This document shows positions 19,720-41,269 of a stretch of DNA of 44,079 nt, piece after piece. Position numbers and translations under genes: made by a program. The stretch is from a virus (taxonomy: Duplodnaviria; Caudoviricetes). Each line of letters opens with the position of its first letter. Within the stretch, counting starts at the first letter, position 1. The stretch lies in IMG/VR virus record IMGVR_UViG_3300030376_006920, positions 1 through 44,079 of that record; one strand, 5' to 3'. The notes beneath the pieces are model-generated. The model was not told the origin of the DNA. It was given only the letters and a program-made list of their open reading frames with translations, and ran no database searches.

Positions 19720-21456
19720 TTAGAATTCAACTCCCGTAGGTGTTACGTTAAAGTCTAAGATTATATATTCAGCTGTTTTAGTTGGTTGTAGGAAAATTTG
19801 TCCTACCATTTGATTTCTATCAATTACATCAGCTGTATTATTAGTATCATCCATTACAACTCTGTAAGAATATAATCCTTGACGTTGTTGAATTGATTCC
19901 ATATAAGGATTTACAGCAGCTAAGAATCTATTACGTGTTGCAGCTGTATTTTGTTCAAATAACAATGTTTTACCAATGTTTCCAACTGTACGTTTTAGTT
20001 CAATTAATAGTCTACGAACATTTACTCTATCTAATGCTGTTGCTTTAGTTTGTAATGTTTTCTGACCAAATACTACTGTTCCGTTTCCTGGGAATGTTGC
20101 TAATGGATTTACTTTTCCTAGATATAGTGTATCGCGATCAGCTGGAGATAATTTTCTTTCAGCTTGGATTACACCTCCTACGCCACCTCTGTTAAATCCA
20201 GCAGGTGCGAACCATTCAGCTCCGATTCTATCATTTGTTGCATATACTCCTGGGATTGCAGTTGATGCTGGTGACCAAATTAGTTTACCAGTTTCAAGTG
20301 ATTGCATTTGAACCCAAGGCCAGTATGTTGCAGCATAACTAGAATCAAGTGTTTGTGCGGAAGTTACGGTTTGATTAAGTGTTGAACCGTAATCTCTTGT
20401 ATCTACGATAGCGATTGCATCTCCTCTTTCTGTTACAGTATCAATCGCTGTAGCTACTGCTACGGCTCCGTTTTGTACTGTTACACCAGGCATAGATAAG
20501 ATTTCATAATCGTATTCGTCTGTGTTTTGTAATAAAGCTAATGATGCTGTATAATAAGAAGCTTCTAGACCTTGGATTGAAGAAATATCAATTTCATCAT
20601 TCATTTTTAATCTAGTGTTTCCATTAGCACCATTACCATATACATCTCCAGTTGCATTTAAGAAGGCACCTTCGTTAGATCCACTTCCTATTTGAGGTAG
20701 AGATGATGTAAATTCTGATTTGAAGTTTCCTTCGTTGTCTAAGTAATTTAATGTAGGTAATCCAACTGAAGATACTCTTACGTAACGGCTGTTATTAACG
20801 TAAGATCCTGTTGTTTGTACGAATTGGTTACCATCACTGTCAGTATCAAAGTTTTTAACTTGATTACCAATTACAGATTCAATATAATTTTCTGAATTTG
20901 GATCTAATGATAGATCAGACCAAGATTCTAATATTGTTTTTGTTCGTGAGTTATCGTCACCTCTACGAATTAATAAGTTAAATGTACCACTTCCTGAATC
21001 AACGTTTGCGATTTCATATCTTACGTTATCAGATGATCCACTTACTAATGAACCACTTGTAGATACACTACCTGAGTTGTTCATAATTTTACCTTGAGAA
21101 ATAGTTTCTAAAGTAAATGAAGATGAATCAGCGTGCATAATTGATCTAACGTCTGATGTTGCAGAACCAAATGATCCTGATGCAATACGTGTTACTATTG
21201 CTGTTTCGCCACCTTGTTGGAAGTAATTATTGATTGCGATTGAAGTTAAGTACTCATAGCGAATACTAGCACTTTCGAATGCGCCACCAAATTTATTTTT
21301 ATAGTCACTATATGAAGTAACTACTGTTGGTATATTAACGGGACCTTTTACAGTTGGGCCTAATAGAGCCAAACCTGCAACAACGGGTCCTTGAGTAACT
21401 AGTGATTGGTCATTCTCACGCGTTAATACTCCTGGGGATAATAATGTTTCAGCCAT
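19720..21456 (-). CDS. Tail sheath protein (T4 gp18-like)
   Basis: SPGVLTREND, YAATYWPW, WFAPAG.NRG, VNP, FGQKTL, DRVNVRRLL, FEQN, PTKTAEYI. Confidence 0.95.
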   Translation of the reverse strand: MAETLLSPGVLTRENDQSLVTQGPVVAGLALLGPTVKGPVNIPTVVTSYSDYKNKFGGAFESASIRYEYLTSIAINNYFQQGGETAIVTRIASGSFGSATSDVRSIMHADSSSFTLETISQGKIMNNSGSVSTSGSLVSGSSDNVRYEIANVDSGSGTFNLLIRRGDDNSRTKTILESWSDLSLDPNSENYIESVIGNQVKNFDTDSDGNQFVQTTGSYVNNSRYVRVSSVGLPTLNYLDNEGNFKSEFTSSLPQIGSGSNEGAFLNATGDVYGNGANGNTRLKMNDEIDISSIQGLEASYYTASLALLQNTDEYDYEILSMPGVTVQNGAVAVATAIDTVTERGDAIAIVDTRDYGSTLNQTVTSAQTLDSSYAATYWPWVQMQSLETGKLIWSPASTAIPGVYATNDRIGAEWFAPAGFNRGGVGGVIQAERKLSPADRDTLYLGKVNPLATFPGNGTVVFGQKTLQTKATALDRVNVRRLLIELKRTVGNIGKTLLFEQNTAATRNRFLAAVNPYMESIQQRQGLYSYRVVMDDTNNTADVIDRNQMVGQIFLQPTKTAEYIILDFNVTPTGVEF

Positions 21457-21479
21457 TTTTATTAGTTATTTTATCAATG

Positions 21480-21487
21480 ATAAATAT
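21480..21487 (-). promoter_or_regulatory. Putative late promoter ATATTTAT
   Basis: Intergenic, upstream of the sheath gene. Confidence 0.6.
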
Positions 21488-21507
21488 GTAGGGATATTTT
21501 AAAAATG

Positions 21508-21765
21508 TTATTCACTTGGTGTAATCTCACCTGTTTTTAAATCAATTTGAGCGCTACCGTATTTTTCTTTTAAAGTATCACCTAATTCTTTTTCTTGTAG
21601 AAGAATTTGTTCATATTGTATTTCTAAATTTTCTTCTTCTTTTTCAAGATTTAACTTCCTTAACGCTAACTGCCCTAATTGGTATGTTATAACGTTAATA
21701 TTTTGTTGAAAGTCTTCTAATGCTTTCAATTCCTCCTCTGTTACCTTTGTTTGTTGTATTGCCAT
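21508..21765 (-). CDS. Small coiled-coil protein (possible fibre assembly chaperone)
   Basis: Start moved to ATG 21765 (MAIQQTKV), which lies downstream of the motif at 21783; heptad pattern, KYG..IDLKTGE end. Confidence 0.75.
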   Translation of the reverse strand: MAIQQTKVTEEELKALEDFQQNINVITYQLGQLALRKLNLEKEEENLEIQYEQILLQEKELGDTLKEKYGSAQIDLKTGEITPSE

Positions 21766-21782
21766 AACGAATTTATTTACAT

Positions 21783-21790
21783 ATAAATAT
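21783..21790 (-). promoter_or_regulatory. Putative late promoter ATATTTAT
   Basis: Lies between a terminator and ATG 21765. Confidence 0.6.
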
Positions 21791-21809
21791 TTGTAGTACA
21801 TATGAGAAC

Positions 21810-21838
21810 AAAAAAAGGGAACGCTTTTACGTTCCCTT
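21810..21838 (-). terminator. Rho-independent terminator ending the fibre cluster
   Basis: Stem AAGGGAACG-N6-CGTTCCCTT running into a U-tract on the minus strand. Confidence 0.85.
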
Positions 21839-21860
21839 CTTTACACATTCAGTATCCCTA

Positions 21861-22562
21861 TTATTTTCCTTCTAGAGCTTTTACTCTTTCGGATAATTCT
21901 TTTACTGCTTCAATTAGTACTGCTGTTAATTTATCATATTTTACAGCTTTGTATCCATTTTCACGATCTGATACTAATTCAGGTAATACTTTTTCTATTT
22001 CTTGTGCAATTACACCTACGTCTTTCATATCGCCATAAACGTGTACACCTTCCATAGGAATCCAGTTATATGTGTATCCACCAATTGCTTCTACTTTTTC
22101 AACTGCATTTTCAATTGATGCTACATTTTCTTTTAAGCGCTCATCTGAAGAAGCAAACGCTACAACGTCGTTAGTTGCTAAGATAGCACCTACAACCCCT
22201 GATGGTGCTGTTCCAACTCCAATTCCATTAGTAGTAATACTACCTGTTTGTAGAATTGAACCTGTAAAGATTTGGTTATCAGCTTCTGTATCACCAAATA
22301 TATTTGATCCAGAAGAAATAATTGTAGAAGAAGATTCAAAAATTTGGTGTACAAATGTACCTGTAGCTGCAGTTATAGTTCCAGTTAAGGTAACATCATC
22401 ATCTAGGTTAACTGTAGTTCCAACTACAGAGATATTTGTACCTCCAATAGGAGCTACATTTGTTAATTGTCCACCATCTCCTTCAAAAGATCCACTAAAG
22501 TGACCACTGGAGGTAGCTGGTAATGTAATATCACCTTGTATTGTTGGATTATCTATTCTCAT
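21861..22562 (-). CDS. Short fibre protein with C-terminal intramolecular chaperone (peptidase S74) domain
   Basis: SSDERLKEN, GYTYNW, GVIAQEIE..LPELV, V.YDKL.AVLIEAVKEL. Confidence 0.88.
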   Translation of the reverse strand: MRIDNPTIQGDITLPATSSGHFSGSFEGDGGQLTNVAPIGGTNISVVGTTVNLDDDVTLTGTITAATGTFVHQIFESSSTIISSGSNIFGDTEADNQIFTGSILQTGSITTNGIGVGTAPSGVVGAILATNDVVAFASSDERLKENVASIENAVEKVEAIGGYTYNWIPMEGVHVYGDMKDVGVIAQEIEKVLPELVSDRENGYKAVKYDKLTAVLIEAVKELSERVKALEGK

Positions 22563-22602
22563 GTTATAATTTTGTTATAGGGGTTGAATGTTTTGTTCTA
22601 TA

Positions 22603-22610
22603 ATAAATAT
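22603..22610 (-). promoter_or_regulatory. Putative late promoter ATATTTAT
   Basis: Intergenic copy. Confidence 0.6.
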
Positions 22611-22627
22611 TAATTTTTTATGAAAAA

Positions 22628-22930
22628 CTATACTTTAACTATGATATGTCCGTTAAAATTATCAGCAAAATTAACAGTTATTGTGTTAGTATTATTTGAT
22701 ATAATGCTTTCAGGAACTACTACTGCAGCTCCGTTACTACCTGTTTCCCATACCGTAACTACAGGATAAGTTTCATTTAAAGAATGGGATACAACGTATG
22801 AACCTGTACTATCTAATATATCTTGTCTATGTGAAAAAGATGCACTTAATAGAATTAAGTTATTATCCATTTCTTCAATAGTTAATTTTCTACCTAAGCC
22901 CGAGCGTAATGTTAATGTTCCTGTTGGCAT
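22628..22930 (-). CDS. Small virion/fibre-associated protein
   Basis: LTLRS.LGRKLTIEEMDNN N-terminus; HSLNETYPVVTVW module shared with the 984-aa fibre. Confidence 0.75.
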   Translation of the reverse strand: MPTGTLTLRSGLGRKLTIEEMDNNLILLSASFSHRQDILDSTGSYVVSHSLNETYPVVTVWETGSNGAAVVVPESIISNNTNTITVNFADNFNGHIIVKV

Positions 22931-22944
22931 TTCTTGTATATATT

Positions 22945-22952: not shown

Positions 22953-22954
22953 TA

Positions 22955-23738
22955 TTAACTTATTCTAATCTTAATATCACTTCCATTTCTATATAGTCCT
23001 CCTAATGGAACTCCCCCTGCTTGTGCTGCTGAATCATCTGCAAAATTTAAACTTTCCGAAACTTCAGTTAATACTATATATCCGGTATCATTTAAGAATG
23101 AACCAGTAAATGAATTAGAGTTTTGATATGGACCAAATATACTACCTGTTAATGCAATATCACCAGATGATGCAAGAGCAGTACCTGCAAAATATTGTTC
23201 AACATAATCATCTATATAATCGTTAAATGATTCTATAGTTAATTTACCTTGCATTTCACCTGAACCAGTAAATGGGAAAGGGTTTACTCCATCAAAAGAT
23301 CCACTGAATGAGCCACTAAATACCCCGTCACCAGTCGATGCATACGAGGATGTAGTTGCGCTATTTGCGAATGATGCAGTGCCTGCTGTGTGTGAGGCTG
23401 TTACTGCTGTCAATGCGTGAGAAGCCGTATCAGGTACGTTTAGAGCATGTGATGCTGTTATAGCAAAACTTGAAGTACCTGTTAATTGAGCTCCTTCAAC
23501 AATTGATATTCCTCCAGATATTAAAAGAGAACCTGTTCTTTCATGAGTATCATCTGAAGTATCACCAAATTTAGTTGAACCACTAGAGTAAATTACTGAA
23601 GCAGTTTCATATATTGTTTCTAAGTGACCAATTGAGGCAGATGTAAGATAGGCTGCGGATGCAGTTAGGTTGCCTTCTATAAGCAGACGATAGTGATGCG
23701 TCAGACCCGCTGACGATAATTTTTTTCCAGTTTGGCAT
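22955..23738 (-). pseudogene. Fibre-associated gene (~260 aa) interrupted by a +1/-2 frameshift near 23685 (recoding, mutation or assembly error)
   Basis: ATG 23738 gives MPNWKKIIVSGSDASLSS (paralogous to MAEWKKIVVSGSD of the 984-aa gene) and stops at 23607; the +1 frame continues LIEGNLTASAAYL...YETASVIYSSGSTKFGD into the 152-aa ORF. Confidence 0.8.
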
Positions 23739-24075: not shown

Positions 24076-27030
24076 TTATATGTAAATATAAGCTTCGTTA
24101 TTATTAGTATCTACGAAAATAGTACCATTACCATTTGTGCCACCATATATTGGATCAGCTCCTCCTACTGGAGTTGAAGTTCCTTCTTGGATAACACCCA
24201 TAAAGGCATCTGGTGTAATTACTGAAGCAGTATCGTTTAGGTTTGATTCAAGTGCCCATCTGTTTGCACTGGAATCGTAAGCAAATGCTTTACCTTTACC
24301 ATCTGGATCATCATCGATTTGATTAACAATAATACCACCATCAATCGCACCGTTTGAACCTGATGCTAATATAATAAATTGATCTTCAACTGCCAACGAA
24401 GAGGCACTAACTATTGATCCACCTACTGTTAAATTACCAGCAACTGTTGCATCATTAGTAACTACTATGTTATTTCCAATTGTTACATTATCTGGTAAAC
24501 TAATTGTTACTGTATCATCTGTTACAGTTGTTGTAATTTCTCCAGCTGTACCATTGAATGAAGCAGTTTCTGATAGTAGGTTAATTGTTGTAGCACCTGA
24601 ATCACCTTGGAAGTTGAAATTCGTTGCTAATCCAGTTAATCCTGAACCATCTCCAATAAACGATCCACTAAATGCACCTGCACCACTTAAGGCATGAGAA
24701 GCACTTGTAGCACTATCTGCTTGTGAAGCTGTAGTAGCACTATCAGCAAAACTTGCTGTTGCTAATGGACTTAATAAAGTAGCTCTTGCAGCAACTGAAG
24801 CACTATCAGCAGTTCTAGCATCTGAGGCTAAGTCTGCGAATGAAGCTGTTGCATCAGCACTTAATAAAGTGGCTCTTGCAGCAACTGAAGCACTGTCTGC
24901 TGTTCTAGCATCTGAGGCTAAATCAGCGAATGAAGCTGTTACTGTAGGTGCTAATCCATTTGCTCTTGTAGCAACTGATGCTGTATCAGCTTGTGTTGCT
25001 TGAGAAGCACTTATTCCCATTCCACCGACCATTGCAGCAGCAACTCCGGCAGTATTTTCAGCAAAATATAATTTTACATTATTAGCATCAATACTTTCAA
25101 CTCTTTCTGGTAGTAATTGATCACCATCTGAATCGTAAGCTTGTACTATAGGATATACTTCATTTAAATTATGTTGGAATGACCATGTAGCAGCTGCTAC
25201 GGATTGATTTAACTTTTTAGTTGAACCTGATCCGAAGAAATCACCAAATATAAAGTCACCACTTGAATTTAATGCTAATCCTTGTCCTTCTAATCCCATT
25301 GATGTTGGGAAGGCAGCACCTGCTGTTATAGCTGAAGCAGTAACTGCATTTGTAGCATTAGAAGCTGAATCGGCTGTTCTAGCATCTGAGGCTAAATCAG
25401 CGAATGATGCAGTAGCATCAGCACTTAACGTTGTAGCACGAGCAGCTACTGATGCACTATCAGCAGTTCTAGCATCACTAGCTAAATCAGCAAAACTTGC
25501 TGTTGCTGTTGGTGCTAAAGCATTAGCTCTTGTAGCTACTGAAGCTGTTGCTTCAATTGAATTTGGTAAACTAACTGTTACTTTAACGTCATTACCTACT
25601 TTTGTTACTACAGTATCAATTTCACCGTCAGTACCTAAAATTTGTAAGTCATCTTGGATTAGATCAGCATCTGCTGTTCCAGTATCGCCGTCTACTGTTA
25701 ATGTAGTAGCTAATCCTGTTAATCCTGAACCATCACCTTGGAATGAACCACTAAATGATCCACTAATTTTATCTGAACTTATTACACCAGCAGTTACTGT
25801 TCCTGTAGTTGTAAAACTTCCAGTTTGTAGTATACTACCTGTAAATTGTTGTATGTCGTTTTGTGCATCACCGAATATATTCGATCCTGATGTAATAATT
25901 GTAGAAGAGGATTCGAATACTTGTAATACAAAGCTACCTGTTGTAGCGGAAATGCTTGTTAAACCAGTTAATGATGCAGCTGTAGTACCTAAATCAATTT
26001 CTGTGGTACCAATTGTTACACTATCATTCTGTAATTTAGCATTTGTTACGTTACCATCTGTAATTTTATCAGTAGTAACAGCATTTGTGCCTAATTTTGC
26101 TGTGGTAATATTACCATCGTGTACAGTACTTGCTAAGTCAGCAAATGATGCTGTTGCTAAATTACTTAATGTTGTAGCACGAGCGGCTACTGAAGCACTG
26201 TCTGCTGTTCTAGCGTCTGAGGCTAAGTCTGCGAATGATGCTGTAGCATCTGGGCTTAGTAAAGTAGCTCTTGCTGCAACAGATGCACTATCAGCTGTTC
26301 TAGCGTCACTTGCTAAATCAGCAAATGATGCTGTTGCGTCAGCACTTAATGTTGTAGCTCTATCAGCAACTGAAGCGGTTGAAGCATGAGCAGCTTCTGA
26401 TGCGCTTTCAGCGTTTGTTGCTAAAGAAGCTGTTACTGTAATACTATTAGGTAATCCTAATGTTACTCTAACATCGTTACCTACTTTTGTTACAGCAGTT
26501 TCAATTTCTTCTGAAGTACCTAAGATTTGGAGATCATCAGCAAGAAGATCTACGTCTTGTGTACCTGAATCACCATCTACGGTTAAATTTGTTGCTAAGC
26601 CAGTTAAACCTGATCCGTCACCTTGGAATGAACCACTGAAGGATCCACTAAAGAGACCATCACCACTTTCTGCAAATGAAGCTGTTGTAGCATCATCAGC
26701 TTGTGAAGCAGTTGCTTGTGGGCTTAAAGTTGTTGCACGAGCTGCTACAGAGGCAGAATCGGCTGTTCTAGCATCTGAAGCTAAATCAGCGAAACTTGCT
26801 GTTGCATCAGGGCTTAATAATGTTGCGCGTGCTGCTACTGAGGCACTATCAGCTGTTCTAGCGTCTGAAGCTAGATCAGCAAAAGACGCGGTTGCGTCTG
26901 CAGATAAGGTTGTGGCTCTTGCTGCAACGGATGCGGAGGCGATCGTTTGTGATCCTGATAAATATCCACTATCATTAACTAGTTGGGATATATCAGAGCC
27001 TGATACGACTATCTTTTTCCATTCTGCCAT
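24076..27030 (-). CDS. Long repeat-rich tail fibre protein
   Basis: 984 aa, Ala/Ser/Thr-rich; 30-aa repeats; SGSF.GDGSGLTG modules; VEDQFIILASGS...DGGIIV fibre motif. Confidence 0.85.
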   Translation of the reverse strand: MAEWKKIVVSGSDISQLVNDSGYLSGSQTIASASVAARATTLSADATASFADLASDARTADSASVAARATLLSPDATASFADLASDARTADSASVAARATTLSPQATASQADDATTASFAESGDGLFSGSFSGSFQGDGSGLTGLATNLTVDGDSGTQDVDLLADDLQILGTSEEIETAVTKVGNDVRVTLGLPNSITVTASLATNAESASEAAHASTASVADRATTLSADATASFADLASDARTADSASVAARATLLSPDATASFADLASDARTADSASVAARATTLSNLATASFADLASTVHDGNITTAKLGTNAVTTDKITDGNVTNAKLQNDSVTIGTTEIDLGTTAASLTGLTSISATTGSFVLQVFESSSTIITSGSNIFGDAQNDIQQFTGSILQTGSFTTTGTVTAGVISSDKISGSFSGSFQGDGSGLTGLATTLTVDGDTGTADADLIQDDLQILGTDGEIDTVVTKVGNDVKVTVSLPNSIEATASVATRANALAPTATASFADLASDARTADSASVAARATTLSADATASFADLASDARTADSASNATNAVTASAITAGAAFPTSMGLEGQGLALNSSGDFIFGDFFGSGSTKKLNQSVAAATWSFQHNLNEVYPIVQAYDSDGDQLLPERVESIDANNVKLYFAENTAGVAAAMVGGMGISASQATQADTASVATRANGLAPTVTASFADLASDARTADSASVAARATLLSADATASFADLASDARTADSASVAARATLLSPLATASFADSATTASQADSATSASHALSGAGAFSGSFIGDGSGLTGLATNFNFQGDSGATTINLLSETASFNGTAGEITTTVTDDTVTISLPDNVTIGNNIVVTNDATVAGNLTVGGSIVSASSLAVEDQFIILASGSNGAIDGGIIVNQIDDDPDGKGKAFAYDSSANRWALESNLNDTASVITPDAFMGVIQEGTSTPVGGADPIYGGTNGNGTIFVDTNNNEAYIYI
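24730..26945 (-). repeat. 90-bp coding repeats (ASVAARATTLSADATASFADLASDARTADS) in four blocks
   Basis: SFADLASDARTADS occurs 8 times in the translation, with 3 further partial units; boundaries approximate. Confidence 0.9.
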
Positions 27031-27083: not shown

Positions 27084-27458
27084 TTAACTACCTACAAAAA
27101 GAGAAGAAGCACTATAAATAAGTGCACCACTTATTGCAGTTACATCTCCTTGATAGGGTGATAATACAAGTACACCTTCTTGGTTTACTTTAATACTACC
27201 ACTTGCATTTTTTACTAATAAAAGATCTTCATCTAATGACGAAGAAACTTCTAATTTTGCTGATGCAGATACTGTTCCAACACCTACTCTACCTGAATCT
27301 TTAGATATAAGTAAAACAGATTGATTTCCACCATTGGAGAACTCCAAATCTTCTGTATCTCCTAATGTTCTTAATACTACTGATCCTGTTATGTCATATC
27401 CATCAGCTGTAAAGTAAATAGAACCGGAGGCGGGAACTATTCTTACATTCTTAGCCAT
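27084..27458 (-). CDS. Small fibre-associated beta-rich protein
   Basis: GRVGVGT....AKLEV motif typical of phage fibre repeats. Confidence 0.75.
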   Translation of the reverse strand: MAKNVRIVPASGSIYFTADGYDITGSVVLRTLGDTEDLEFSNGGNQSVLLISKDSGRVGVGTVSASAKLEVSSSLDEDLLLVKNASGSIKVNQEGVLVLSPYQGDVTAISGALIYSASSLFVGS

Positions 27459-29850
27459 TTACTTTCGCCTTAAGTGTTTCCACTTCCTGTTTTAATTCTT
27501 TTATTCCTTCTATTAGAACCGATACTAGTTTTTCGTATTTTACAGCTTTATATCCATTTTCTCTATCAGCAACAACTTCAGGAAATACTTTTTCTACTTC
27601 TTGAGCTATTACTCCAATATCATGTCCTGAATGAACGTGAATACCTTCCATAGGAATCCAATCAAATTCATATCCTGATAATTGATCAATTTTTTCTAAT
27701 GGATTAGCTATTATAGTTTTATTTTCTTTTAATCTTTCATCTGAAGAAGCAAATGCTACAACATCGTTTGTTGCTAATATTGCTCCTACTACACCAGAGG
27801 GTTCTGTACCTACACCTAAACTAGAGGATATAGATAAACTACCTGTAATTTTAGTTGATAATCCTATATCTACAATATCACTCTTAATAAACATTGCAGA
27901 ACCAGTAACGTGATGACCACCTTGCCCTACAAGTACAGATTCACTTACAGGATATCCTACTGAGGATCCTGTTAAATCAGACATTTCAGGACCAAATAAG
28001 GCTATTGCTGCTTCATGTTGAGCATCATGTTCATATTCATATTTCCAATCATGTGAATCTCCATCCCATAAGAAAGAAGCTGTATCATCTGTAGAACCAC
28101 TATCTTGTACTTTTATACCCGCAAATCTTTGAGCAGGAGTATTATTATTTAATATAATAAAAGCATCTCCAATTATTTTAGCTGAACCTGATACAGATTC
28201 TAGATAAGCAAAAGATGCTGTACCTGCTACTGCTATATCACCTGTTACATCAATTGAAGAGGCTGATAGGATTAATCCAGTTTTTAAATCATCTGCTATA
28301 GAAGCACTAGTTGCGTAACTAGCAGACATAACATTTAAGGAACCAGTTGAAATAGCAGTTGCTACTCCATCTCCATTTCCAACCCAAGCGTATCCTGATT
28401 GAATATTTGGTACATCGTTAGATCTACCGGCCCCCATTACTATTATTTCACCATCAGAAGCATCTACTTTACCTACAACCCCAATATTTTGGATTAATGA
28501 TGTACCTATTGGTTTAGTTTGGGTATAACCACCATTAGTATTTACATAAATGTTGTCACCTGCTGTGAACCCATTAGTATCAACACCTATTATTCTACCT
28601 GAAATAATTGCTTGTCCAGCAGCATTTGCATTAATATCTTCATTTGCAATACCAATTGCAGGCATGCTAGCTGCTAAATCAGCAGAGGCTGTTACAACAT
28701 CAAGGTTTTCACCTGTTACACCAATTGAGTGTAATGTTTGGCCTTTTAATATTGTTGTTGCTTGATTATTTTTAACAGTAATAATTAAATCTTCGGCATT
28801 AGTAGCTGTACCTAATAATGAACCTGTAATTGAACCAGATACATCTAATGATCCTGTTATATTAACCGAACTTGAAAATGATGAATTAGATGCTGTGACT
28901 TGTAAAGTGTTATTAGCATAGTTTAAATTTACACTAGCACTTAATGTATCAGTACCACCCGTGTATAATAAGATTGAACCTGTGTCACCTCCTACTACTG
29001 AAAGTGGACCTGAAGTACCAGAAGTACCTGAGGTACCTGATGTACCTATATCTCCTGTTCTAGAAAAAGATATTACTAATTTATCTCCATTTGAAGGAAG
29101 GGTACCTGTAATATAATCTACGGGAATTGTATAATATCCTGATTGTGCAGATACAGTACCTATAATTTCAAATACATTTACAATATTACCTGTATCTCTA
29201 CTAGATATAATTAAATGTCCATAAGGAGTAGTGTTTGTAGAACCATCCCATGTATTATACCAAGCTGTTTGACTATTTCCTTTTTGATCTAAATTATCAA
29301 TTATAAGAGCAGATACAGATCCTATAGTAACATTATTATACCTAATAACTCCATTTCCAGGATCACTTATACCTGTAGATGTATCAAAATTATATTCAAC
29401 TCCTCCTTTTTCTCCACTAGTACCTGATGTACCTGATGTACCTGAACTTCCTGAAGTACCGTTTGTACCATTTGTTCCTGAAGTACCTGAACTTCCTGAT
29501 GAACCTGATGATCCATCTGAACCAGATGTACCTGAAGTACCAGAAGAACCAGATGTTCCAGACGTACCACTAGTACCTGATGTACCAGATGTACCTGATG
29601 TTGATTGTCTGTTAGTGAATGTTAAATCTCCACTGGCTGTGTTATAAGCGACTAATTGAGGAGCATCTCCTGCTCCAGTTTCTGTCATGCTTCCACTTTT
29701 GATAGATAAACTACCAGTGATTCCTACAGAACCTGTTACGTATATGTCGTTATTTGCTGTTCCAGAAAGAGCATCTATAATTCGAGTTACATTCTCGGCG
29801 CGAATCACGCTACCACTCTGAATGCCCGATGTGCTTATTGTATTAGCCAT
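27451..29850 (-). CDS. Tail fibre protein with Gly-Thr/Ser-Ser collagen-like repeats and C-terminal S74 chaperone
   Basis: (GTS/GSS)n tracts; SSDERLKEN, GVIAQEVE, YEKLVSVLIEGIKEL. Confidence 0.88.
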   Translation of the reverse strand: MANTISTSGIQSGSVIRAENVTRIIDALSGTANNDIYVTGSVGITGSLSIKSGSMTETGAGDAPQLVAYNTASGDLTFTNRQSTSGTSGTSGTSGTSGTSGSSGTSGTSGSDGSSGSSGSSGTSGTNGTNGTSGSSGTSGTSGTSGEKGGVEYNFDTSTGISDPGNGVIRYNNVTIGSVSALIIDNLDQKGNSQTAWYNTWDGSTNTTPYGHLIISSRDTGNIVNVFEIIGTVSAQSGYYTIPVDYITGTLPSNGDKLVISFSRTGDIGTSGTSGTSGTSGPLSVVGGDTGSILLYTGGTDTLSASVNLNYANNTLQVTASNSSFSSSVNITGSLDVSGSITGSLLGTATNAEDLIITVKNNQATTILKGQTLHSIGVTGENLDVVTASADLAASMPAIGIANEDINANAAGQAIISGRIIGVDTNGFTAGDNIYVNTNGGYTQTKPIGTSLIQNIGVVGKVDASDGEIIVMGAGRSNDVPNIQSGYAWVGNGDGVATAISTGSLNVMSASYATSASIADDLKTGLILSASSIDVTGDIAVAGTASFAYLESVSGSAKIIGDAFIILNNNTPAQRFAGIKVQDSGSTDDTASFLWDGDSHDWKYEYEHDAQHEAAIALFGPEMSDLTGSSVGYPVSESVLVGQGGHHVTGSAMFIKSDIVDIGLSTKITGSLSISSSLGVGTEPSGVVGAILATNDVVAFASSDERLKENKTIIANPLEKIDQLSGYEFDWIPMEGIHVHSGHDIGVIAQEVEKVFPEVVADRENGYKAVKYEKLVSVLIEGIKELKQEVETLKAKVNG
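29413..29603 (-). repeat. 9-bp periodic Gly-X-Y (GTS/GSS/GTN) coding repeat
   Basis: gtacctgat/gtaccagaa-type units on the + strand; boundaries approximate. Confidence 0.9.
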
Positions 29851-29882: not shown

Positions 29883-29890
29883 ATAAATAT
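29883..29890 (-). promoter_or_regulatory. Putative late promoter ATATTTAT
   Basis: Upstream of the 799-aa fibre gene. Confidence 0.6.
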
Positions 29891-32201: not shown

Positions 32202-32233
32202 TTAATATAATAACCTTTAGTACATTTTACAAA
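32202..32233 (-). promoter_or_regulatory. Bacteroidota-type housekeeping-sigma promoter for the glycosyltransferase
   Basis: TTTG-N20-TATATTAA; shares AAGGTTATTATATTAA with the SSB promoter at 7679-7710. Confidence 0.65.
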
Positions 32234-33717
32234 CTTTTTTCACGCTTTGGTTGTAATATTTCAAATTTACCTTCATTATAACGTTGAGCATGTACAATGT
32301 AAAAACAATGTGGTTTACCACATTCACATCCTACTTCAATTTCTTCTCTTGAAACAGATTTTACAAAGTGATGACAAGCATTACCAATTGGAGTAAGTTG
32401 TACTGTAATATCAGTATCATCTACAGGTAAATCTTTCCAATAATCTGGTAAGTGGATTACATCGCTAGTTTTTAATTTACCTCTATGATATATACCACGT
32501 TCAGGCCCTTCTAGGGATGAATGTAGTAGATAATACCCTTCCATTGTAGGGTGTTGTATTTTAAAGTTTTTAGTTGCAGCATCTAATGTTCCCTCTACAA
32601 ATACATTTCCTGATACAATTAAAGTATCACCATCAAATGTAAATTCAGTAGAATAGTTTGAACCCGAAAATACCCCACTAAAAGCTCCATCACCACTTTG
32701 TGCAAAAGAAGCTGTATCTGCTAAAGATGAACTAACTTCTTTAGTAATTTCTACAGAGGCAGAAAAAGCATATGAAGCTGTTTCGGCATATGAAGCACTT
32801 GTAGCTTGTAATGCAAGTGATGCTGTAATAGCTTCTAAAGCTAAAGAAGCAGTAGTGGCAGTATCAGCAAAACTAGCAGTTGATATGTAAGAAGCAGTTG
32901 TAGCAAAATCCGATATTGAAGCTGTACCTAATACATCTCCTAATAATGAACCTGTAAATGACCCAGTGAATGAGCCTGTTGCTGTAGTTCCTCCACCTCC
33001 TGAGCCTGATAGGTCAGATAAGTATTGATTAATTGCTATATTATAACCAGCGTATTCAGAACCTGCTTTTAAACTCTCCATTCCCGCAACTCCTAATGAG
33101 AATCCAGGAGCTATAGAGCCTGTATCTGTTAGGTCAATAATTGCAACTTCTCTTTCTGCAGTTTGTAAAGTATCACCTGAATCTGATTCTAAACCTTCTT
33201 CACCCCATTCAACAAAAAATGAAATTTCAGATGATCCTATATTTCTTTGAACTACTTCTGATACTTGATAGAGATGGAATCTGTTTTTTACTGTAGAGTT
33301 ATTTCTTTTTGCTACACCTACTATAGCAAAATTAGATCCTGAATCACTACCACTAATGCTGTTTACATTTAAATCATTATTTGGATCATTAAAACTAGCA
33401 GATTGAAATAAATAAGATCCTGAAGGGGTAGATAAACCAAATGTATCACTTGCAGCGTTTGATGTAGCCTGTTGAGTTAAAGTAATTTGTGTATAATCTT
33501 CATTAACAGACTGTACTGCTGTACCTGCTGGCACTGCACCAGCTACTGAAAATATAATTTGTCCGGGTCTAATTAAGGTTTCATCTCCTGATGATATATT
33601 AACATCAGCTATTAAATTAGAACCACTAGCAAGATTACCGGATCCAATAATAAAGTTAGTTGATAGAATACTACCGGCATCAACAACACCTATAAATCTT
33701 TGATCTCTATACGCCAT
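32227..33717 (-). CDS. Fibre/spike protein with a C-terminal K-F-x-I-x-HP...EGPE domain
   Basis: TGSFTGSF and TAS repeats; TKNFKIQHP, SLEGPE.G.YHRG, LPDYW, ITVQLTPIG. Confidence 0.8.
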   Translation of the reverse strand: MAYRDQRFIGVVDAGSILSTNFIIGSGNLASGSNLIADVNISSGDETLIRPGQIIFSVAGAVPAGTAVQSVNEDYTQITLTQQATSNAASDTFGLSTPSGSYLFQSASFNDPNNDLNVNSISGSDSGSNFAIVGVAKRNNSTVKNRFHLYQVSEVVQRNIGSSEISFFVEWGEEGLESDSGDTLQTAEREVAIIDLTDTGSIAPGFSLGVAGMESLKAGSEYAGYNIAINQYLSDLSGSGGGGTTATGSFTGSFTGSLLGDVLGTASISDFATTASYISTASFADTATTASLALEAITASLALQATSASYAETASYAFSASVEITKEVSSSLADTASFAQSGDGAFSGVFSGSNYSTEFTFDGDTLIVSGNVFVEGTLDAATKNFKIQHPTMEGYYLLHSSLEGPERGIYHRGKLKTSDVIHLPDYWKDLPVDDTDITVQLTPIGNACHHFVKSVSREEIEVGCECGKPHCFYIVHAQRYNEGKFEILQPKREKSL

Positions 33718-33726: not shown

Positions 33727-36198
33727 TTAGAATGTTACTTTAATTAGTGATTTTATTAAAGCACTTAATCCTCCTACTTGAAATACATTAAAGTTTGAAC
33801 TTGTATTAAGTGAAATTACAGCAGAGGTGTTTTGGTTACCATTATTTAAAGCCCAAGCTTGTATTATTGGTGGGTTTTGTGTATATAAAGTTCCATTTGC
33901 ACCAGCTCCATTAGTTCTAGAGGTAGGCATTGTAAAATCAAATGTTGTTGTTGTTTTAGTTGGTGTAGTTATCTTTGCTGAAATTAATTGGGCATCTCCT
34001 ACACTTGGTGAAGATATGGTTGCACCAGCTTGTGTAAATGATGTTACACTAAATGCAGGTACATAAGCTCCTTTTACTCCTGATGTACCACCTGAGTTTG
34101 CTACACCTGTAATATCAAATGTGTTTGTTGCAACATTTGAAACTGCAGCATATAAATAATCCTGGTTCATATTTTGAATAACTACATAATCTCCATTTGA
34201 TAATCCATGAGCTGTACTTGTAATTGATAATGTTGTACTACTTCTTGTCCAACTTAACCCACCATATAGAGTTGCTGAGGATAATAATTCAATACTTCCA
34301 TCTGCTCCACTATTTCCTAAATCATTAGCTATATATCTTACTTGATTATTATAAATTGTACTAATACCAGCATCTACTCCTGTTAAACTTGATCCATCAC
34401 CTTGGAATGATCCACTAAATGAACCACTAAATGTACCGTCTCCTGTTTCTGCAAAAGAAGCAGTTGTAGCATCATTAGCAATTGATGCAGTTCCTGCAGT
34501 GTGTGATGCTGTAGTAGCAGTATTTGCTATTGAAGCAGTACCGGATGTAAGTGAAGCTGTAGTTGCTAAATCAGCTATTGATGCTGTACCTAATACATCT
34601 CCTAAAATTGATCCTGTAAATGAACCTGTATAAGATCCTGTTGGTGAAGCTACACCTGTTAATAATGTTCCATCTCCTTGAAATGATCCACTAAACGATC
34701 CACTAAATGGACCACTAGCATTTTGTAATTCGTTCCAACCACCACCATGAGCAAAATACATTGCTCCATCTGTATGTGAATGTGCTATAGCACCATGATA
34801 TGTTCCAGCATTAGGGAATTGTCCTGTATTATCATAATAAAATGGTATTACACTAGCTGCTTGTGAAGCTGTAATAGCTCCAGCTACGGTTAAACCTGCT
34901 GTTTCTCCATTTATTTCTAAAGTTCCTGATATTTCAGCACTTCCTGTAAATGGAAATCCTTCTCCTGTACCTGATGTACCTGATGAACCATTTGTCCCAC
35001 TGGTACCATTTGTACCACTTGTACCTGAACTACCAGAGGAGCCACTTGAACCAGAACTACCATCTGTACCATTTGTACCACTGGTTCCTGAATTCCCACT
35101 AGTACCTGATGTACCAGATGTACCCGGAGCCGATTCTAAACTTACATTCCAGCTTGAATATGTACCACTTCCTCCTGTTGTAGTTACAGTTACAGACATT
35201 GCACCTGTACCTGAATTATAACCGGTGATTTTACCAATCATAAAGTCAGCAGTATTAGAAGCATAAATAATAGCTACTGATTGTCCTACTATATAAGATA
35301 AACCTGTAGAAACTGTTAATGATTTAGATCCAGTTCCAATTGCTAAAGCTGTTGAAGATGTAGTTGTAAATAAGTTACCATCTGCACCTGAAGTTCCTGA
35401 ACTACCAGAACTACCACTTGATCCTGAACTACCATCTGTACCATTTGTACCACTAGTTCCTGAACTACCAGAAGAACCATTTGAACCAGAAGTTCCCGAT
35501 GAACCACTACTACCTGAAGTTCCAGGAGTTGATTCTAAACTTACATTCCAGCTTGAATATGTTCCACTTCCTCCTATTAATGATACATTTACTGTTAAAG
35601 CTCCCGTATTAGTATTATAAGCAGTAATTTTACCATTCATAAAGTTAGAAGCTGTTGATGCATCAACTATTGATATAGATTGTCCTACTATATAAGATAA
35701 ACCTGTAGCTACTGATATTGTTTTAAGTCCAGTACTTATAGTAGCTGCAGTAGATGAAGTTGTTGTAAATAAATTACCATCTTGACCAGAAGTACCAGAT
35801 GTACCACTAGAACCACTTGAACCTGAAGATCCGTCTGTACCTGAAGTACCAGATGTACCAGAATTTCCTGAAGTACCATCTGTTCCTGATGTACCTGCAG
35901 TACCAGAAGTACCAGATGTACCACTTGTACCATCTCCACTTCCACCTCCACCACCTAAACTACCTGTACTAAAAAATATATCTCCTGAAGAAGTATTATA
36001 CATTAAAGCAGCAGGTGCATTATTATTTTCAATAAGACTACCTGAAGAAATTTTAGTGCTACCTGATACAGTTAAGGAACCTGAAAAAGCTATGTCATAA
36101 GGACCAGCATCACCATTTAAAGCGTCAATTGATCTTAAAACGTGTTCTGGGAAGATTATACTTCCACTATCAATTCCTTGGGTTGTAATTTTTGCCAT
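33727..36198 (-). CDS. Tail fibre protein with three Gly-Thr/Ser-Ser collagen-like tracts and a duplicated beta domain
   Basis: 823 aa; (GTS/GSS)n three times; two copies of GNLFTTTSST...YSSWNVSLES. Confidence 0.85.
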   Translation of the reverse strand: MAKITTQGIDSGSIIFPEHVLRSIDALNGDAGPYDIAFSGSLTVSGSTKISSGSLIENNNAPAALMYNTSSGDIFFSTGSLGGGGGSGDGTSGTSGTSGTAGTSGTDGTSGNSGTSGTSGTDGSSGSSGSSGTSGTSGQDGNLFTTTSSTAATISTGLKTISVATGLSYIVGQSISIVDASTASNFMNGKITAYNTNTGALTVNVSLIGGSGTYSSWNVSLESTPGTSGSSGSSGTSGSNGSSGSSGTSGTNGTDGSSGSSGSSGSSGTSGADGNLFTTTSSTALAIGTGSKSLTVSTGLSYIVGQSVAIIYASNTADFMIGKITGYNSGTGAMSVTVTTTGGSGTYSSWNVSLESAPGTSGTSGTSGNSGTSGTNGTDGSSGSSGSSGSSGTSGTNGTSGTNGSSGTSGTGEGFPFTGSAEISGTLEINGETAGLTVAGAITASQAASVIPFYYDNTGQFPNAGTYHGAIAHSHTDGAMYFAHGGGWNELQNASGPFSGSFSGSFQGDGTLLTGVASPTGSYTGSFTGSILGDVLGTASIADLATTASLTSGTASIANTATTASHTAGTASIANDATTASFAETGDGTFSGSFSGSFQGDGSSLTGVDAGISTIYNNQVRYIANDLGNSGADGSIELLSSATLYGGLSWTRSSTTLSITSTAHGLSNGDYVVIQNMNQDYLYAAVSNVATNTFDITGVANSGGTSGVKGAYVPAFSVTSFTQAGATISSPSVGDAQLISAKITTPTKTTTTFDFTMPTSRTNGAGANGTLYTQNPPIIQAWALNNGNQNTSAVISLNTSSNFNVFQVGGLSALIKSLIKVTF
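34963..35950 (-). repeat. Gly-X-Y tracts alternating with a duplicated ~250-bp domain
   Basis: gattctaaacttacattccagcttgaatatgt occurs near 35132 and 35531; boundaries approximate. Confidence 0.88.
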
Positions 36199-37597: not shown

Positions 37598-38749
37598 TTA
37601 TGCTATAAAGATAGGTAAAGGTACTTGATCTAATGTAGTTTTCATTGCATCTGCCTCTTCTGCTTTACGTTGAAGTTGCATTTTTCTTGAATTTTCATCT
37701 AAATCAATTCTTAATTTTTCAATTAATGCTGATTTTTCTGCGTTTGCTGCTGCAATTAAATCTGCTTGATTTAAAGTTACTTCAGCTCCAGGAACGGGTA
37801 CCTGTGAATATTTACCTCTTACATATCCTAATAATTCTTTAGCTAGTGCTAAAGTGTATTCAAATATCCAATATCTACCAGGTGCATTAACATAAGCATA
37901 AGTTGGGTTTTCATATGGAACATTTGAAATATCTGTTACCATATTGCTTCCTGAGAATGCAGGAGAAGTAGGGGCATTTCTTTCATCTACTTTTATATAT
38001 TGAATAAACAATTGCCCAGTAGTATTTGGTATAGGAAATATTTTTAATTGATTATTTACAAGTTCAAATGTAAATGCCGATTTTCTAATCTGATCATTCA
38101 TTTCAATTGCTTGAATTACAGATACATCATAATAAATTGGCATTAATAAGAAGTTAATAGCAGGAGAATAGTTTCCAAACCCAAAAACATCCATTAATTG
38201 TTGTGATCCGTATCCTGTACCAGCATATGGATCAAAATATCTTACAATTGCAGGAGTATTTTGATAAAATACTTGTTTTACCTCAATTGAACCTGTAATA
38301 CCTTGTGTATCTTTCCAAGCATTTAAATCATATTCCTGTTGTGAAGCTGTAAGCGGAATTGAACCTGAATACCAAGTTACTGTACCTCCTGATCCTGCTT
38401 CAGATCCATAATTTTCAGCTAACCTAATTACATTTCCTAAATTAGGATTAATTACTTTATTATTTAAGTCAGAACCTGTAGTAGCAGCTTCTAAGTTTAT
38501 AAAGTTATTTCGTATTTGATATAGGTAAAGTTCATTACCATATGTAGTTACTGCTTCTTCAAAACAAGCATAAAATGAACCACTGCCCATTTCAACATCA
38601 ACTGTAGGATATCCTAAACGAGATGCACAAAATTGTGCTACTTTATCGGCATCTGCCGCAAAGTCAGCATCCGTATCATAAAATCCAAAAGGAGTTGAGC
38701 CAGTTTCAAAAGTTGAATTACCAGTCCATATTATAGGTACTTGAGACAT
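37598..38749 (-). CDS. Neck / head-tail adaptor protein (T4 gp13-like)
   Basis: RLGYPTVDVE, WIFEYTLALAKELLGYVRGKY..VP.PG..VTLN. Confidence 0.8.
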   Translation of the reverse strand: MSQVPIIWTGNSTFETGSTPFGFYDTDADFAADADKVAQFCASRLGYPTVDVEMGSGSFYACFEEAVTTYGNELYLYQIRNNFINLEAATTGSDLNNKVINPNLGNVIRLAENYGSEAGSGGTVTWYSGSIPLTASQQEYDLNAWKDTQGITGSIEVKQVFYQNTPAIVRYFDPYAGTGYGSQQLMDVFGFGNYSPAINFLLMPIYYDVSVIQAIEMNDQIRKSAFTFELVNNQLKIFPIPNTTGQLFIQYIKVDERNAPTSPAFSGSNMVTDISNVPYENPTYAYVNAPGRYWIFEYTLALAKELLGYVRGKYSQVPVPGAEVTLNQADLIAAANAEKSALIEKLRIDLDENSRKMQLQRKAEEADAMKTTLDQVPLPIFIA

Positions 38750-38763
38750 AATTAGGTTTTGTT

Positions 38764-38771
38764 ATAAATAT
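38764..38771 (-). promoter_or_regulatory. Putative late promoter ATATTTAT
   Basis: Upstream of the neck genes. Confidence 0.6.
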
Positions 38772-39506
38772 TTATTTTCTTGCGGTTCCACTACTACCTG
38801 CAGTACCTACTATTCGTTTATTATCATAAGCATCGTTATAATAGTCAATTAAATCTTGAACTATTTCATCTCTATTATTTGTTAATAGAGTAATTGATTC
38901 CATATTTTTAACTTTTTTAGCAGCGCTATATAAAAATTTAAAACCAGAATCTTCTTTTTTCTTTAAATCTACCTGATGTGTATCACCACATACAATCATT
39001 TTTGATCGTTTTCCAATACGAGTTGCGATCATTTCCATTTGATCATGTGTAACATTTTGTGCTTCATCTACTATAATAATAGAATCTAAGAATGTTCTAC
39101 CTCGCATAAATGATACAGGTACAATTTCTATTTTACCATCTTCAATAAATTTTTCTATTTTTACTTTATCATATAATAGAAACATATTTTGATAAATAGG
39201 TTGAACCCAAGGGTCCATTTTTTCTCTTAAATCTCCAGGTAAAAATCCAATTTCTTCTTTGGATACAGTTGGTCTAGTAATTATGACTTTATCATATTGT
39301 CGTCTGAATAGACCATCTAATGCAATATTACATGCTAGTAACGTTTTTCCAGAACCTGCTTGTCCCGCTAGTAGCGTGACTGTATTATCTAATATTTTTG
39401 CTTTAGCTTCTTTTTGCTCTTCGTTTAATTGTAATTTAAATTTAATTGGGTTTTTTGGTATCCTCTTTGGACGATATACATCATCCGTATGGGGTTTACT
39501 CGCCAT
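38772..39506 (-). CDS. phoH: PhoH-family ATPase
   Basis: GQAGSGKT, TRP, GFLPG, FMRGRTF, DEAQN, TRIG, GD..QVDL; start at 39506 or 39512. Confidence 0.95.
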   Translation of the reverse strand: MASKPHTDDVYRPKRIPKNPIKFKLQLNEEQKEAKAKILDNTVTLLAGQAGSGKTLLACNIALDGLFRRQYDKVIITRPTVSKEEIGFLPGDLREKMDPWVQPIYQNMFLLYDKVKIEKFIEDGKIEIVPVSFMRGRTFLDSIIIVDEAQNVTHDQMEMIATRIGKRSKMIVCGDTHQVDLKKKEDSGFKFLYSAAKKVKNMESITLLTNNRDEIVQDLIDYYNDAYDNKRIVGTAGSSGTARK

Positions 39507-39551
39507 AAACATTTTGTTAAAGGGTTAAACATATGGAAAAAAGCGTCACAT

Positions 39552-39559
39552 ATAAATAT
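39552..39559 (-). promoter_or_regulatory. Putative late promoter ATATTTAT
   Basis: Abuts the capsid terminator, upstream of phoH. Confidence 0.6.
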
Positions 39560-39589
39560 AAAAAAAATCCCGCCTTACGGGGCGGGATT
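39560..39589 (-). terminator. Rho-independent terminator after the major capsid gene
   Basis: AATCCCGCC-N6-GGCGGGATT followed by a U-tract on the minus strand. Confidence 0.9.
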
Positions 39590-39616
39590 CTTTAAATAAG
39601 TAAAAGTTACTTAATC

Positions 39617-41269
39617 TTAGATTACATCTAGATCTGCAACAAGTACTTTACCATAAAATTCAGGTCTTACCATTTTCTTAGCGTAACGTGTCATGATACC
39701 TTTTCTTGGAGTGAAGGTATTAGGATCGTACACTAGAGGTGTCATGATTAATGGAATATATGGAGCATATACAGCACCACTTTCTAGGAATTGATTTCCT
39801 CTAAAGCCCATCAAGATTGTGTTTTCAGTCATGTATGGGTTTTTGTACACTTTGTAACGGCTGTTTAAAGCACCGATTTTCTGTACACCAAATGCATAGT
39901 TAGCTTTAGATACATCTCCGTCGCTATCAGCAGCAAATCCTGGGATTGATTCTAGTACAGTTGCTACAGTTGGAGATACTACCATAAAGTTAGCACCACC
40001 ACGTAGAGTTTTCTGGTGAATCAAGTTAGAAATTTTCTGTAGTTTAATTCCAAGTGTTTGGAACCAGCTCATTTGTGTATAATATACACCGTTAGTGTTA
40101 GAATCGAATGCAGTTTTAGCTGAATTAATTTCATTACCTACTCTTGCAGACCACTCAGCAACTTGGCTAGTTGGTACGTTTTCGATTAACATATCAAGAA
40201 TTTCAAGATCGATTTCCAATGAGATGTATTCTGAAAGGATGTTAGTCAATTCAGCTTCAGCATCTAGTGAATGGAAAGCGTTTAAATCTTGAGAAAATTC
40301 TGGTGTCCATTGTGCTTTTAACTTTCTTGTTTTAGCAGCAATAGTTTCACTTCTTAGTTGAACATCGATTTCTGGGATGTTAATTGCTCTACCAGTACCA
40401 GACTGAGAAGAGTAATCAGCTCCATCTTCGAAGTCACCTCTTGCGTTATCAGCAGTTTTCTTGTTATAGAAAACAGTAATATCTTCATCACTTTCAATAC
40501 CAGATGAAGTTACAAAGAAGTCAATACTATCTCCATTTAACTTAGTTAAAGATGGAAGGTTTTCAGCAGCTGTAATTGCAGCTAATGCTCCGTTATCACC
40601 AGTTAAATAGAATCCTCTAATTCCGTCTATATCAGCATTAGCTAAAGATCCTGTTTTAACAGTAATTTTAGTAATTTGCCCTGGAGCAGCTGCTATAGAA
40701 GCTGAGAAATCAGAGTTAAAGTTTACATCAGCATAAGAAGCTGAAGCAACAGTATGGTTAGCATCAGCAACAGAAGCTGAGAATTGGTTGATTGAATATC
40801 CAAATCTTCCAGCTCCGTAAAGTCCACCTGTGTTTGTGTTACCAAAGTGGCCATCTGTATAGCTATCACCATACATTGAATCACCATCAGTAACTGGAGT
40901 TTTAGTTGATCCATATTGGAAATCTAGATAAAATACTAGTCCAGCAGGAAGGCTCATTGGTTGAACAGAAACAAATTCTTTAGCAGCGATTTGTCCGAAT
41001 ACTTTACGTACTAGGGGTAGTGCTACTGCAGCGTACTGCTCACCAGTTCCTGGAGTAAAGCTTGCGCCAGTTCCAGTTGTATTAGCTTCAACAACAAGTT
41101 GTTTAGCTTGGTTTTCTAACATGATTGCCATGTTAGATTTATCAGTGTCACTAGAAATTCCTTCTAGTAGTCCTGACTTGTCCCACTTTCCAGCAAGTCT
41201 AGCAGCATCTTTTTGTACTGACTTGTATGGGTTAGCGGTCTCTAATAGTTGATTTACTACGTTTGACAT
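39617..41269 (-). CDS. Major capsid protein (T4 gp23-like)
   Basis: VSVQPM..PAGLVF, AKTRKLKAQWTPEFSQDL, DAEAEL, EIDLEI, YAPYIPL, PRKGIMTRYA. Confidence 0.97.
   Translation of the reverse strand: MSNVVNQLLETANPYKSVQKDAARLAGKWDKSGLLEGISSDTDKSNMAIMLENQAKQLVVEANTTGTGASFTPGTGEQYAAVALPLVRKVFGQIAAKEFVSVQPMSLPAGLVFYLDFQYGSTKTPVTDGDSMYGDSYTDGHFGNTNTGGLYGAGRFGYSINQFSASVADANHTVASASYADVNFNSDFSASIAAAPGQITKITVKTGSLANADIDGIRGFYLTGDNGALAAITAAENLPSLTKLNGDSIDFFVTSSGIESDEDITVFYNKKTADNARGDFEDGADYSSQSGTGRAINIPEIDVQLRSETIAAKTRKLKAQWTPEFSQDLNAFHSLDAEAELTNILSEYISLEIDLEILDMLIENVPTSQVAEWSARVGNEINSAKTAFDSNTNGVYYTQMSWFQTLGIKLQKISNLIHQKTLRGGANFMVVSPTVATVLESIPGFAADSDGDVSKANYAFGVQKIGALNSRYKVYKNPYMTENTILMGFRGNQFLESGAVYAPYIPLIMTPLVYDPNTFTPRKGIMTRYAKKMVRPEFYGKVLVADLDVI

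Follow-up and report, generated by a model that had tools for sequence, protein, structure and literature searches.

Gene content of the window and occurrence of the motif

The DNA analysed here (hereafter the window, meaning the whole stretch of 44,079 nucleotides) is the IMG/VR virus record IMGVR_UViG_3300030376_006920, a linear record of 44 kb estimated to be 27% complete. Its main genes, all on the minus strand, are those of a T4-like myovirus and cover replication, tail, fibres, neck and capsid. The element under study is the tripeptide (S/T)-(G/A)-S, which the original prediction had read as a modification sequon of outward-facing virion proteins, linked to a protein O-glycosyltransferase homologue encoded in the same region. 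We found that this motif is strongly enriched in the particle proteins of the window and of most of its relatives, and that a core set of glycosyltransferase genes accompanies it through the lineage.

Enrichment was tested with 5000 whole-protein shuffles per protein and with 30-residue local shuffles. The 11 particle proteins hold 167 motifs vs 37.2 expected, and the other 25 open reading frames (ORFs) hold 2 vs 9.6 (P 0.004); as these 11 had been chosen by the original prediction or by their counts, the pooled figure is descriptive and the per-protein shuffles are the test. By this test the p value was at most 0.004 in ten of the 11. The tail sheath (19720..21456) has 9 motifs vs 1.8 (p 2e-4), all between residues 62 and 305 and none in its conserved core (311-578), and the neck or head-tail adaptor protein (phrog_211, 37598..38749) has 7 vs 0.54 (p 2e-4). 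Two small proteins behave likewise: the 124-residue protein of no known family (27084..27458) has 5 vs 0.74 (p 4e-4), and the 100-residue protein with weak head-decoration PHROG matches (22628..22930) has 3 vs 0.25 (p 8e-4). Position and motif together suggest that the 124-residue protein is probably a particle protein. The major capsid protein of the T4 gp23 type (39617..41269) was borderline, with 4 motifs vs 1.36 (p 0.048 global, 0.059 local); all four lie at residues 164-208, within the part of the insertion domain at residues 160-270 (nucleotides 40460-40792), where 0.57 would be expected.

The largest counts were found in the fibre and fibre-like proteins: 46 vs 8.7 in the 984-residue fibre with internal repeats (24076..27030), 34 vs 13.4 in the 823-residue fibre (33727..36198), 28 vs 5.8 in the 799-residue fibre with an S74 chaperone (27451..29850), 20 vs 2.8 in the 496-residue protein (32227..33717), 7 vs 1.3 in the 152-residue protein (22955..23413) and 4 vs 0.64 in the 233-residue fibre tip, also with an S74 chaperone (21861..22562). 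Part of the excess in the fibres is due to their internal repeats; with the Gly-X-Y tracts masked, 23 vs 3.5 and 22 vs 6.8 were left. Significance was kept under the local shuffles in the sheath, neck, two small proteins and fibres, so that composition and local low complexity were both rejected as explanations. NrdA, the helicase and RecA contain no motif, the tape measure contains one and the tail tube one (p 0.09). Hence the hand counts on which the original prediction had relied were reproduced throughout, from the saturated fibres to the nearly empty enzymes and tape measure, and they exceed composition in ten proteins; the only adjustment is that sheath site 303 lies slightly beyond the mid-point of that protein rather than in its first half.

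When tripeptides were ranked with no pattern supplied, SGS, TGS and SAS came out as the top three in the sheath, neck, capsid and two small proteins taken together. The serine codons within the motifs come from both families (TCN and AGY), which places the signal at the protein level; a DNA-level motif was rejected since the codons vary.

Two further features of the fibres were observed. The 984-residue fibre is built from many copies of a unit of about 29 residues that includes Asp-Ser-Ala, which matches the word used in periplasmic O-glycosylation of the Bacteroidota; as the protein is cytoplasmic, the fit is probably due to chance. The fibres at 21861..22562 and 27451..29850 carry closely similar terminal S74 chaperone domains with the same short segment before each, which suggests that the tip was recently duplicated or exchanged.

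Distribution and grammar of the motif in related phages

By capsid identity, the nearest named phages are Flavobacterium phage immuto (57%), Microcystis phage Mel-JY01 (50%), LR756508 (49%) and Rhodothermus phage RM378 (37%). Sequencing runs containing most of a 6-kb stretch of the window are largely marine metagenomes: part of the stretch is present in 20 of 24 run rows, mostly from seawater or marine samples, and at least half of its words in four. The six RNA run rows (share 0.32-0.41) were not taken as expression. The host of the window phage is presumably a member of the Bacteroidota.

Most capsid and neck proteins among 80 capsid loci, immuto and Mel-JY01 show the motif excess. Seven relatives were read whole or as large contigs together with the window, and nearly all of the enriched ORFs in these eight encode sheath, capsid, neck, baseplate or fibre proteins or lie within those blocks, the exceptions being a few small ORFs in immuto and G007. 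Meanwhile, the remaining ORFs stay at expectation (65 vs 61 in G007, 59 vs 62 in G010 and 61 vs 62 in immuto). Immuto has the same gene order as the window and 182 motifs vs 89 expected. Mel-JY01 (PP395634.1; loci L002 and L127-L129), although recorded as a Microcystis phage, resembles the Flavobacterium phage immuto in gene order, motif and glycosyltransferase operon.

The grammar of the motif was read from 78 capsid, 73 neck and 25 sheath proteins (176 in total, dereplicated at 80%, with the motif-poor loci L220, L228, L297 and L298-L377 left out). In this set SGS (305 observed vs 58 expected), TGS (213 vs 49), SAS (170 vs 62) and TAS (81 vs 53) are enriched, whereas SGT (53 vs 49), AGS (63 vs 59) and NGS (38 vs 41) are not. 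Proline is reduced to 0.13-fold after the motif, where arginine, lysine and glutamate are likewise depleted, and hydrophobic residues are favoured on either flank. At recurrent columns, which were themselves selected by the motif, position 1 is Ser in 431 and Thr in 170 cases, and position 3 is Ser in 601 and Thr in 40. Because threonine is rare at position 3 while position 1 exchanges serine and threonine, Ser3 would be the likelier acceptor. The alignments contain 63, 45 and 67 different motif columns in capsid, neck and sheath, respectively, which indicates that sites are gained and lost, and some sites are kept in most homologues. Counted by distinct columns, the preference for TGS over SGT is clear in the neck (25 vs 6) and the sheath (30 vs 12).

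Placement in outer domains and avoidance in non-surface proteins

Domains were delimited by homology to T4, with capsid residues about 140-295 corresponding to the gp23 insertion and sheath residues about 93-305 lying outside the conserved gp18 core; both regions, from the T4 structure, presumably face outward. In 140 capsid and 33 sheath sequences (not dereplicated), the capsid insertion domain holds 586 motifs vs 158 expected and the remainder of the protein 21 vs 81.5, while the outer sheath holds 237 vs 58.5 and the core 2 vs 16.8.

The opposite trend was seen in orthologues that do not form the surface, namely replication enzymes, terminase, portal, tube, hub and glycosyltransferases. In eight motif-positive genomes, whose orthologues are not independent of one another, they contain 22 motifs vs 49.2 expected, and all eight genomes fall below expectation. 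The same orthologues in three motif-poor genomes contain 25 vs 18.2, and six control triplets remain near expectation. Such avoidance is expected from a modifying enzyme in the cytoplasm and not from a structural preference.

A purely structural origin would hold that small polar residues simply suit exposed beta-strand ends and turns, are amplified in fibre repeats, include a few conserved sites and stay unmodified. The hydrophobic, beta-like flanks, the concentration of the largest counts in repetitive fibres and the sites conserved in most homologues agree with such an origin. However, the reverse order is unenriched, unrelated folds share the motif, and avoidance in enzymes is confined to motif-positive genomes. 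Furthermore, a marine sister clade (G065-G069) and LR756508 have orthologues of the capsid, neck, sheath and baseplate proteins that mostly lack the motif. We thus regard a structural origin as quite unlikely, and it is very probable that the motif is a tag of some kind that is read by an enzyme or another protein.

A core glycosyltransferase operon accompanies the motif

Four complete genomes have 37 protein families in common, and four of these families are glycosyltransferases. The gene row consists of GT4a, GT4b, a small Cys-containing protein and GT2; behind it lies a cluster whose make-up varies between genomes, with epimerases, dehydratases, aminotransferases and additional transferases. 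GT4b directly follows GT4a in 54 of the 62 loci with room for it, and GT2 is within reach in 48 of 48. All eight complete motif-positive genomes picked via capsid or NrdA carry GT4b; five further motif-positive genomes were found through GT4a and are circular as evidence. A contig whose NrdA is 90% identical to that of the window also carries GT4b. The operon is a core element of the lineage, with the variable nucleotide-sugar cluster behind it. In Mel-JY01, GT4a is split over two ORFs.

Adjacent cytoplasmic enzymes of GT4 fold are familiar from GtfA and GtfB, which act on streptococcal serine-rich repeat proteins with Ser-Ala-Ser-like repeats. The phage genes resemble this pair in their adjacency and GT-B fold, but the E-x7-E motif is kept in both GT4a and GT4b alignments, so neither seems inactive and a GtfB-like model with an inactive partner is unsupported; moreover, the phage sites are scattered in folded proteins. 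The predicted GT4b model adopts a GT-B fold at a predicted local distance difference test score (pLDDT) of 88. Its top PDB match is B736L of chlorovirus NY-2A (3OY2, 13% identity), followed by generic GT4 enzymes; as the acceptor of B736L has no assignment, this match probably says little about GT4b function.

As for DNA, the bases reported for immuto are dA, dC, dT and fdPreQ1, with no sugar-bearing base among them (10.1101/2023.04.13.536721); this may speak against DNA as the acceptor. The main text of that paper nowhere uses the word glycosyl. A side observation concerns the replication genes: the family A DNA polymerase match of the window (8136-9434, minus strand) is a piece of only 432 residues, and a larger second polymerase gene is annotated elsewhere in immuto.

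The neighbouring GT4-TibC fusion follows a different signal

The original prediction had pointed to a protein O-glycosyltransferase homologue in the same region, and this gene is indeed present. It lies at 29890..32196 and encodes an accessory fusion of a GT4 (residues 1-390) with a TibC/Aah-type domain (residues 396-768), for which TIGR04414 scores 311 bits against a cut-off of 200 and TibC itself matches at E 6e-53. Its D485 and K606 align to TibC D110, the catalytic Asp, and K230, which likewise belongs to the catalytic residues. Cysteines 721, 724, 738 and 750 align to the iron-finger cysteines C339, C342, C358 and C370, while the adenine-contacting Arg286 of TibC, by which an adenine nucleotide is selected, is replaced by Ile (alignment column counted by hand). 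In the published work TibC modifies serine on TibA, and its D110A variant is inactive (PMC4358343). No autotransporter family was detected among the 35 window ORFs scanned, the genome being a fragment.

With its intact catalytic residues, its place among motif-rich fibre genes and a serine-modifying homologue, this fusion could have been the enzyme that writes the motif. The relatives speak otherwise. Thirteen complete genomes show the motif excess (immuto, Mel-JY01, G007, G010, G026-G029, G031, G052, G055, G095 and G096), in nine of which it is known from the sheath or capsid locus only; G025, whose contig is 95% complete and carries both GT4a and GT4b, was excluded for want of a sheath match. 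TibC occurs in only four of the 13 (Mel-JY01, G029, G055 and G096) and is absent from nine, and the fusion has no tblastn match in immuto. LR756501, in turn, bears TibC, yet the 50 kb that were read show no overall surplus of the motif. The fusion was rejected as a lineage-wide writer of the motif, and we judge it very improbable that it writes the motif in the window either. Thus the neighbouring enzyme finds no support as the cause of the motif, and the two do not regularly co-occur across relatives, whereas the idea of a modification sequon is strengthened by direction, turnover, outer-domain placement and avoidance.

What TibC does follow is a different feature, the proline-free Gly-Ser/Thr-Ser tract. 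Presence of TibC and of such tracts is concordant in 19 of 19 complete genomes (five with both, 14 with neither; Fisher p 9e-5, without correction for kinship). In the window the tracts sit in the two fibres that flank the fusion gene, at residues 90-137, 226-270 and 359-409 of the 823-residue protein (Gly-Thr/Ser-Ser) and at 86-145 and 269-280 of the 799-residue protein (Gly-Thr-Ser); immuto, unlike the window, has neither fusion nor tracts. The link is looser at the scale of single loci, where 15 of 36 TibC loci have tracts within the flank, many of them short, and two fragments with sub-cut-off TibC matches (G016 and G024) have no tracts. The fusion is accordingly an accessory gene that likely acts on the Gly-Ser/Thr-Ser tracts of the fibres. 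In Mel-JY01, the TibC fusion bears an FkbM methyltransferase. A subclade (L438-L450) has a GT4-TibC fusion that is 37-42% identical to the TibC domain of the window and no tract in the flank fetched; its tracts may lie elsewhere, or its acceptor may differ.

Outgroups and the weighing of the operon as candidate writer of the motif

In the LR756511 clade, the motif is lacking (21 vs 65.5 expected in 78 capsid proteins), and LR756511 itself, one 98%-complete genome (bar one fragment at E 9e-4) and eight fragments have no GT4a/GT4b pair. LR756508 has GT4a without GT4b and no motif in its capsid, neck or sheaths, with 224 vs 160 over the whole genome. RM378 carries all three genes, with a distant GT4b, and its motif count is moderately above expectation (83 vs 37 overall, 3 vs 0.3 in the neck). 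In RM378 (L210-L212) the Thr-x-Ser words TLS, TFS, TVS and TIS are enriched besides SGS and TGS, and the motif may be looser in this thermophilic phage.

We consider it fairly probable that (S/T)-(G/A)-S is an O-glycosylation acceptor sequon, written by the core GT4a-GT4b-GT2 operon and coating the outside of the virion. Several results weigh against this reading. One is the marine sister clade, which retains GT4a and GT4b with their catalytic motifs, and in G065 and G068 also GT2, yet lacks a virion-wide excess: genome-wide counts in these two are 82 vs 63 and 72 vs 59, and across the clade the necks have 8 vs 18.7, the capsids 36 vs 28.8 and the sheaths no more than 94 vs 54.7. RM378 likewise has the trio, yet one motif each in capsid and sheath. 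The operon is absent from the window fragment, at about 27% completeness, and its presence in the phage is inferred from relatives such as immuto, whose genome carries it; five close fragments also lack GT4b and the operon, which is uninformative. The structural neighbours of GT4b are generic GT4 enzymes, none of them a known protein glycosyltransferase. By distinct columns the direction bias is weak in the capsid (TGS 29 vs SGT 21), and the pooled counts come from related, hence non-independent, sequences. The original prediction had also proposed mapping the sites on structures; outer-domain placement was obtained by homology to T4 gp23 and gp18, but the predicted capsid model (pLDDT 49) is too poor for exposure to be measured, although it has beta-strands at 163-268. 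Glycosylation of the motif by the operon is putative.

The sister-clade genomes are 80-84% complete and have one or two enriched proteins each. A scan for a replacement motif in this clade and in LR756508 found none; all that it returned were a Pro-Thr repeat for G068 and, for LR756508, Cys patterns. As a control, the same scan in immuto ranked SGS first and TGS among the top six. The Pro-Thr-rich repeat lies in two to four structural-block proteins of the region G068:72793-83328 in this motif-poor clade, and possibly it is a mucin-like acceptor for the retained transferases. A quick capsid tree with a weak backbone places the sister clade and LR756508 among motif-positive lineages, which suggests two losses of the motif. 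The sister GT4a (G068:104411-105673, G065:56456-57715) lacks about 28 residues that follow the E-x7-E helix in the aligned motif-positive copies; its C-terminus is also shorter. This insert is a candidate acceptor-recognition element by alignment; to explain the sister clade by it is a post hoc rescue that serves as a lead only. Because the sister clade keeps GT4a and GT4b without a virion-wide excess, the idea that the pair is sufficient was rejected, and the pair looks necessary but not sufficient.

Alternatively, the motif could be a tag that is read but not glycosylated by the GT4 pair. It might receive another modification (phosphate, phosphocholine or an acyl group), be served by a host enzyme, or be the place where a decoration protein or a chaperone docks, with the operon acting on another acceptor such as the host surface. 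Direction, turnover and avoidance indeed speak for recognition and not for a particular chemistry, the operon has been retained in the sister clade although the motif is largely gone there, and several of the 37 shared families are unannotated. On the other side, four of these 37 are glycosyltransferases adjoining sugar-synthesis genes, and the recorded hosts across which the motif occurs are Flavobacterium, Microcystis and, on weak grounds, Rhodothermus, a spread that is easier to reconcile with a phage enzyme than with a host one. On balance we hold this alternative to be unlikely, if less so than a structural origin.

Proposed mechanism and comparison with known systems

The best reading of the enrichment, direction, turnover, placement, avoidance, gene content and two co-occurrences is that of two layered virion O-glycosylation systems. 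In the infected cytoplasm, one GT4 would take the first sugar from a nucleotide-sugar and place it on Ser3 of (S/T)-(G/A)-S where the surroundings resemble a beta-strand; its extension into a strain-specific glycan would fall to the second GT4 together with the GT2s and the variable cluster. Sites would be gained where a sugar is of benefit, namely in the insertion domain of the capsid, the outer sheath, the neck, the baseplate and the fibres, and eliminated where it would hinder folding or assembly. A second layer would come from the accessory GT4-TibC fusion, which would modify the proline-free Gly-Ser/Thr-Ser tracts present in two fibres of the window and whose donor may not be ADP-heptose. 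The coat might serve shielding, solubility or adhesion. A broader picture, which we put forward tentatively, is of a large aquatic T4-like family with a general O-glycosylation pathway of its own that is directed by the sequon. The GT4 pair would read the motif on every outer virion protein, an exchangeable sugar cassette would determine a glycan 'serotype', the word would have been cleared from all other proteins, and some members would add a TibC-dependent second coat to collagen-like fibres.

Virion glycosylation of the Che8 type in mycobacteriophages, as cited in two papers (PMC12619734, PMC11256854), involves phage glycosyltransferases and a proposed glycan coat of capsid and tail, with glycans at the C-termini of the capsid and tail tube subunits. 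The present phages likewise encode their own glycosyltransferases, in the window the fusion and in relatives the core of four families. They differ in that the capsid motifs of the window are internal (164-208) and its tube has just the one motif; here, in a myovirus of the T4 type, a three-residue word occurs at many internal sites, spread over about ten outer proteins that are unrelated to one another.

Compared with the TibC/Aah heptosyltransferases (TIGR04414; PDB 4RAP, 4RB4; PMC4358343), the window domain shares the catalytic Asp and four iron-finger cysteines but is fused to a GT4, has Ile in place of Arg286, has no autotransporter found beside it and likely has a phage fibre tract as acceptor. 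Chlorovirus capsid glycosylation (PMC9614988) is similar in its virus-encoded glycan machinery and atypical capsid sequons; its glycans, however, are N-linked, and the virus is eukaryotic. At the level of titles and abstracts, and with most subscription journals outside the scope of the search, we found no literature on the motif, on a phage sequon or on virion glycosylation in Immutovirus-like phages.

Known phage virion glycosylation is, in the accessible literature, confined to a few mycobacteriophages. A partial scan hints at the size of the present group, with an estimated total of about 10,000 IMG/VR stretches matching capsid patterns that are not family-specific. Immuto is in culture, which permits a direct test. 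If the proposed mechanism is true, a soluble cytoplasmic O-glycosyltransferase with a minimal tag would be of use for glycoengineering. It would also mean that a widespread aquatic phage family wears a dense and variable sugar coat laid down under a three-residue rule, with a bearing on host recognition, particle stability and virion proteomics.

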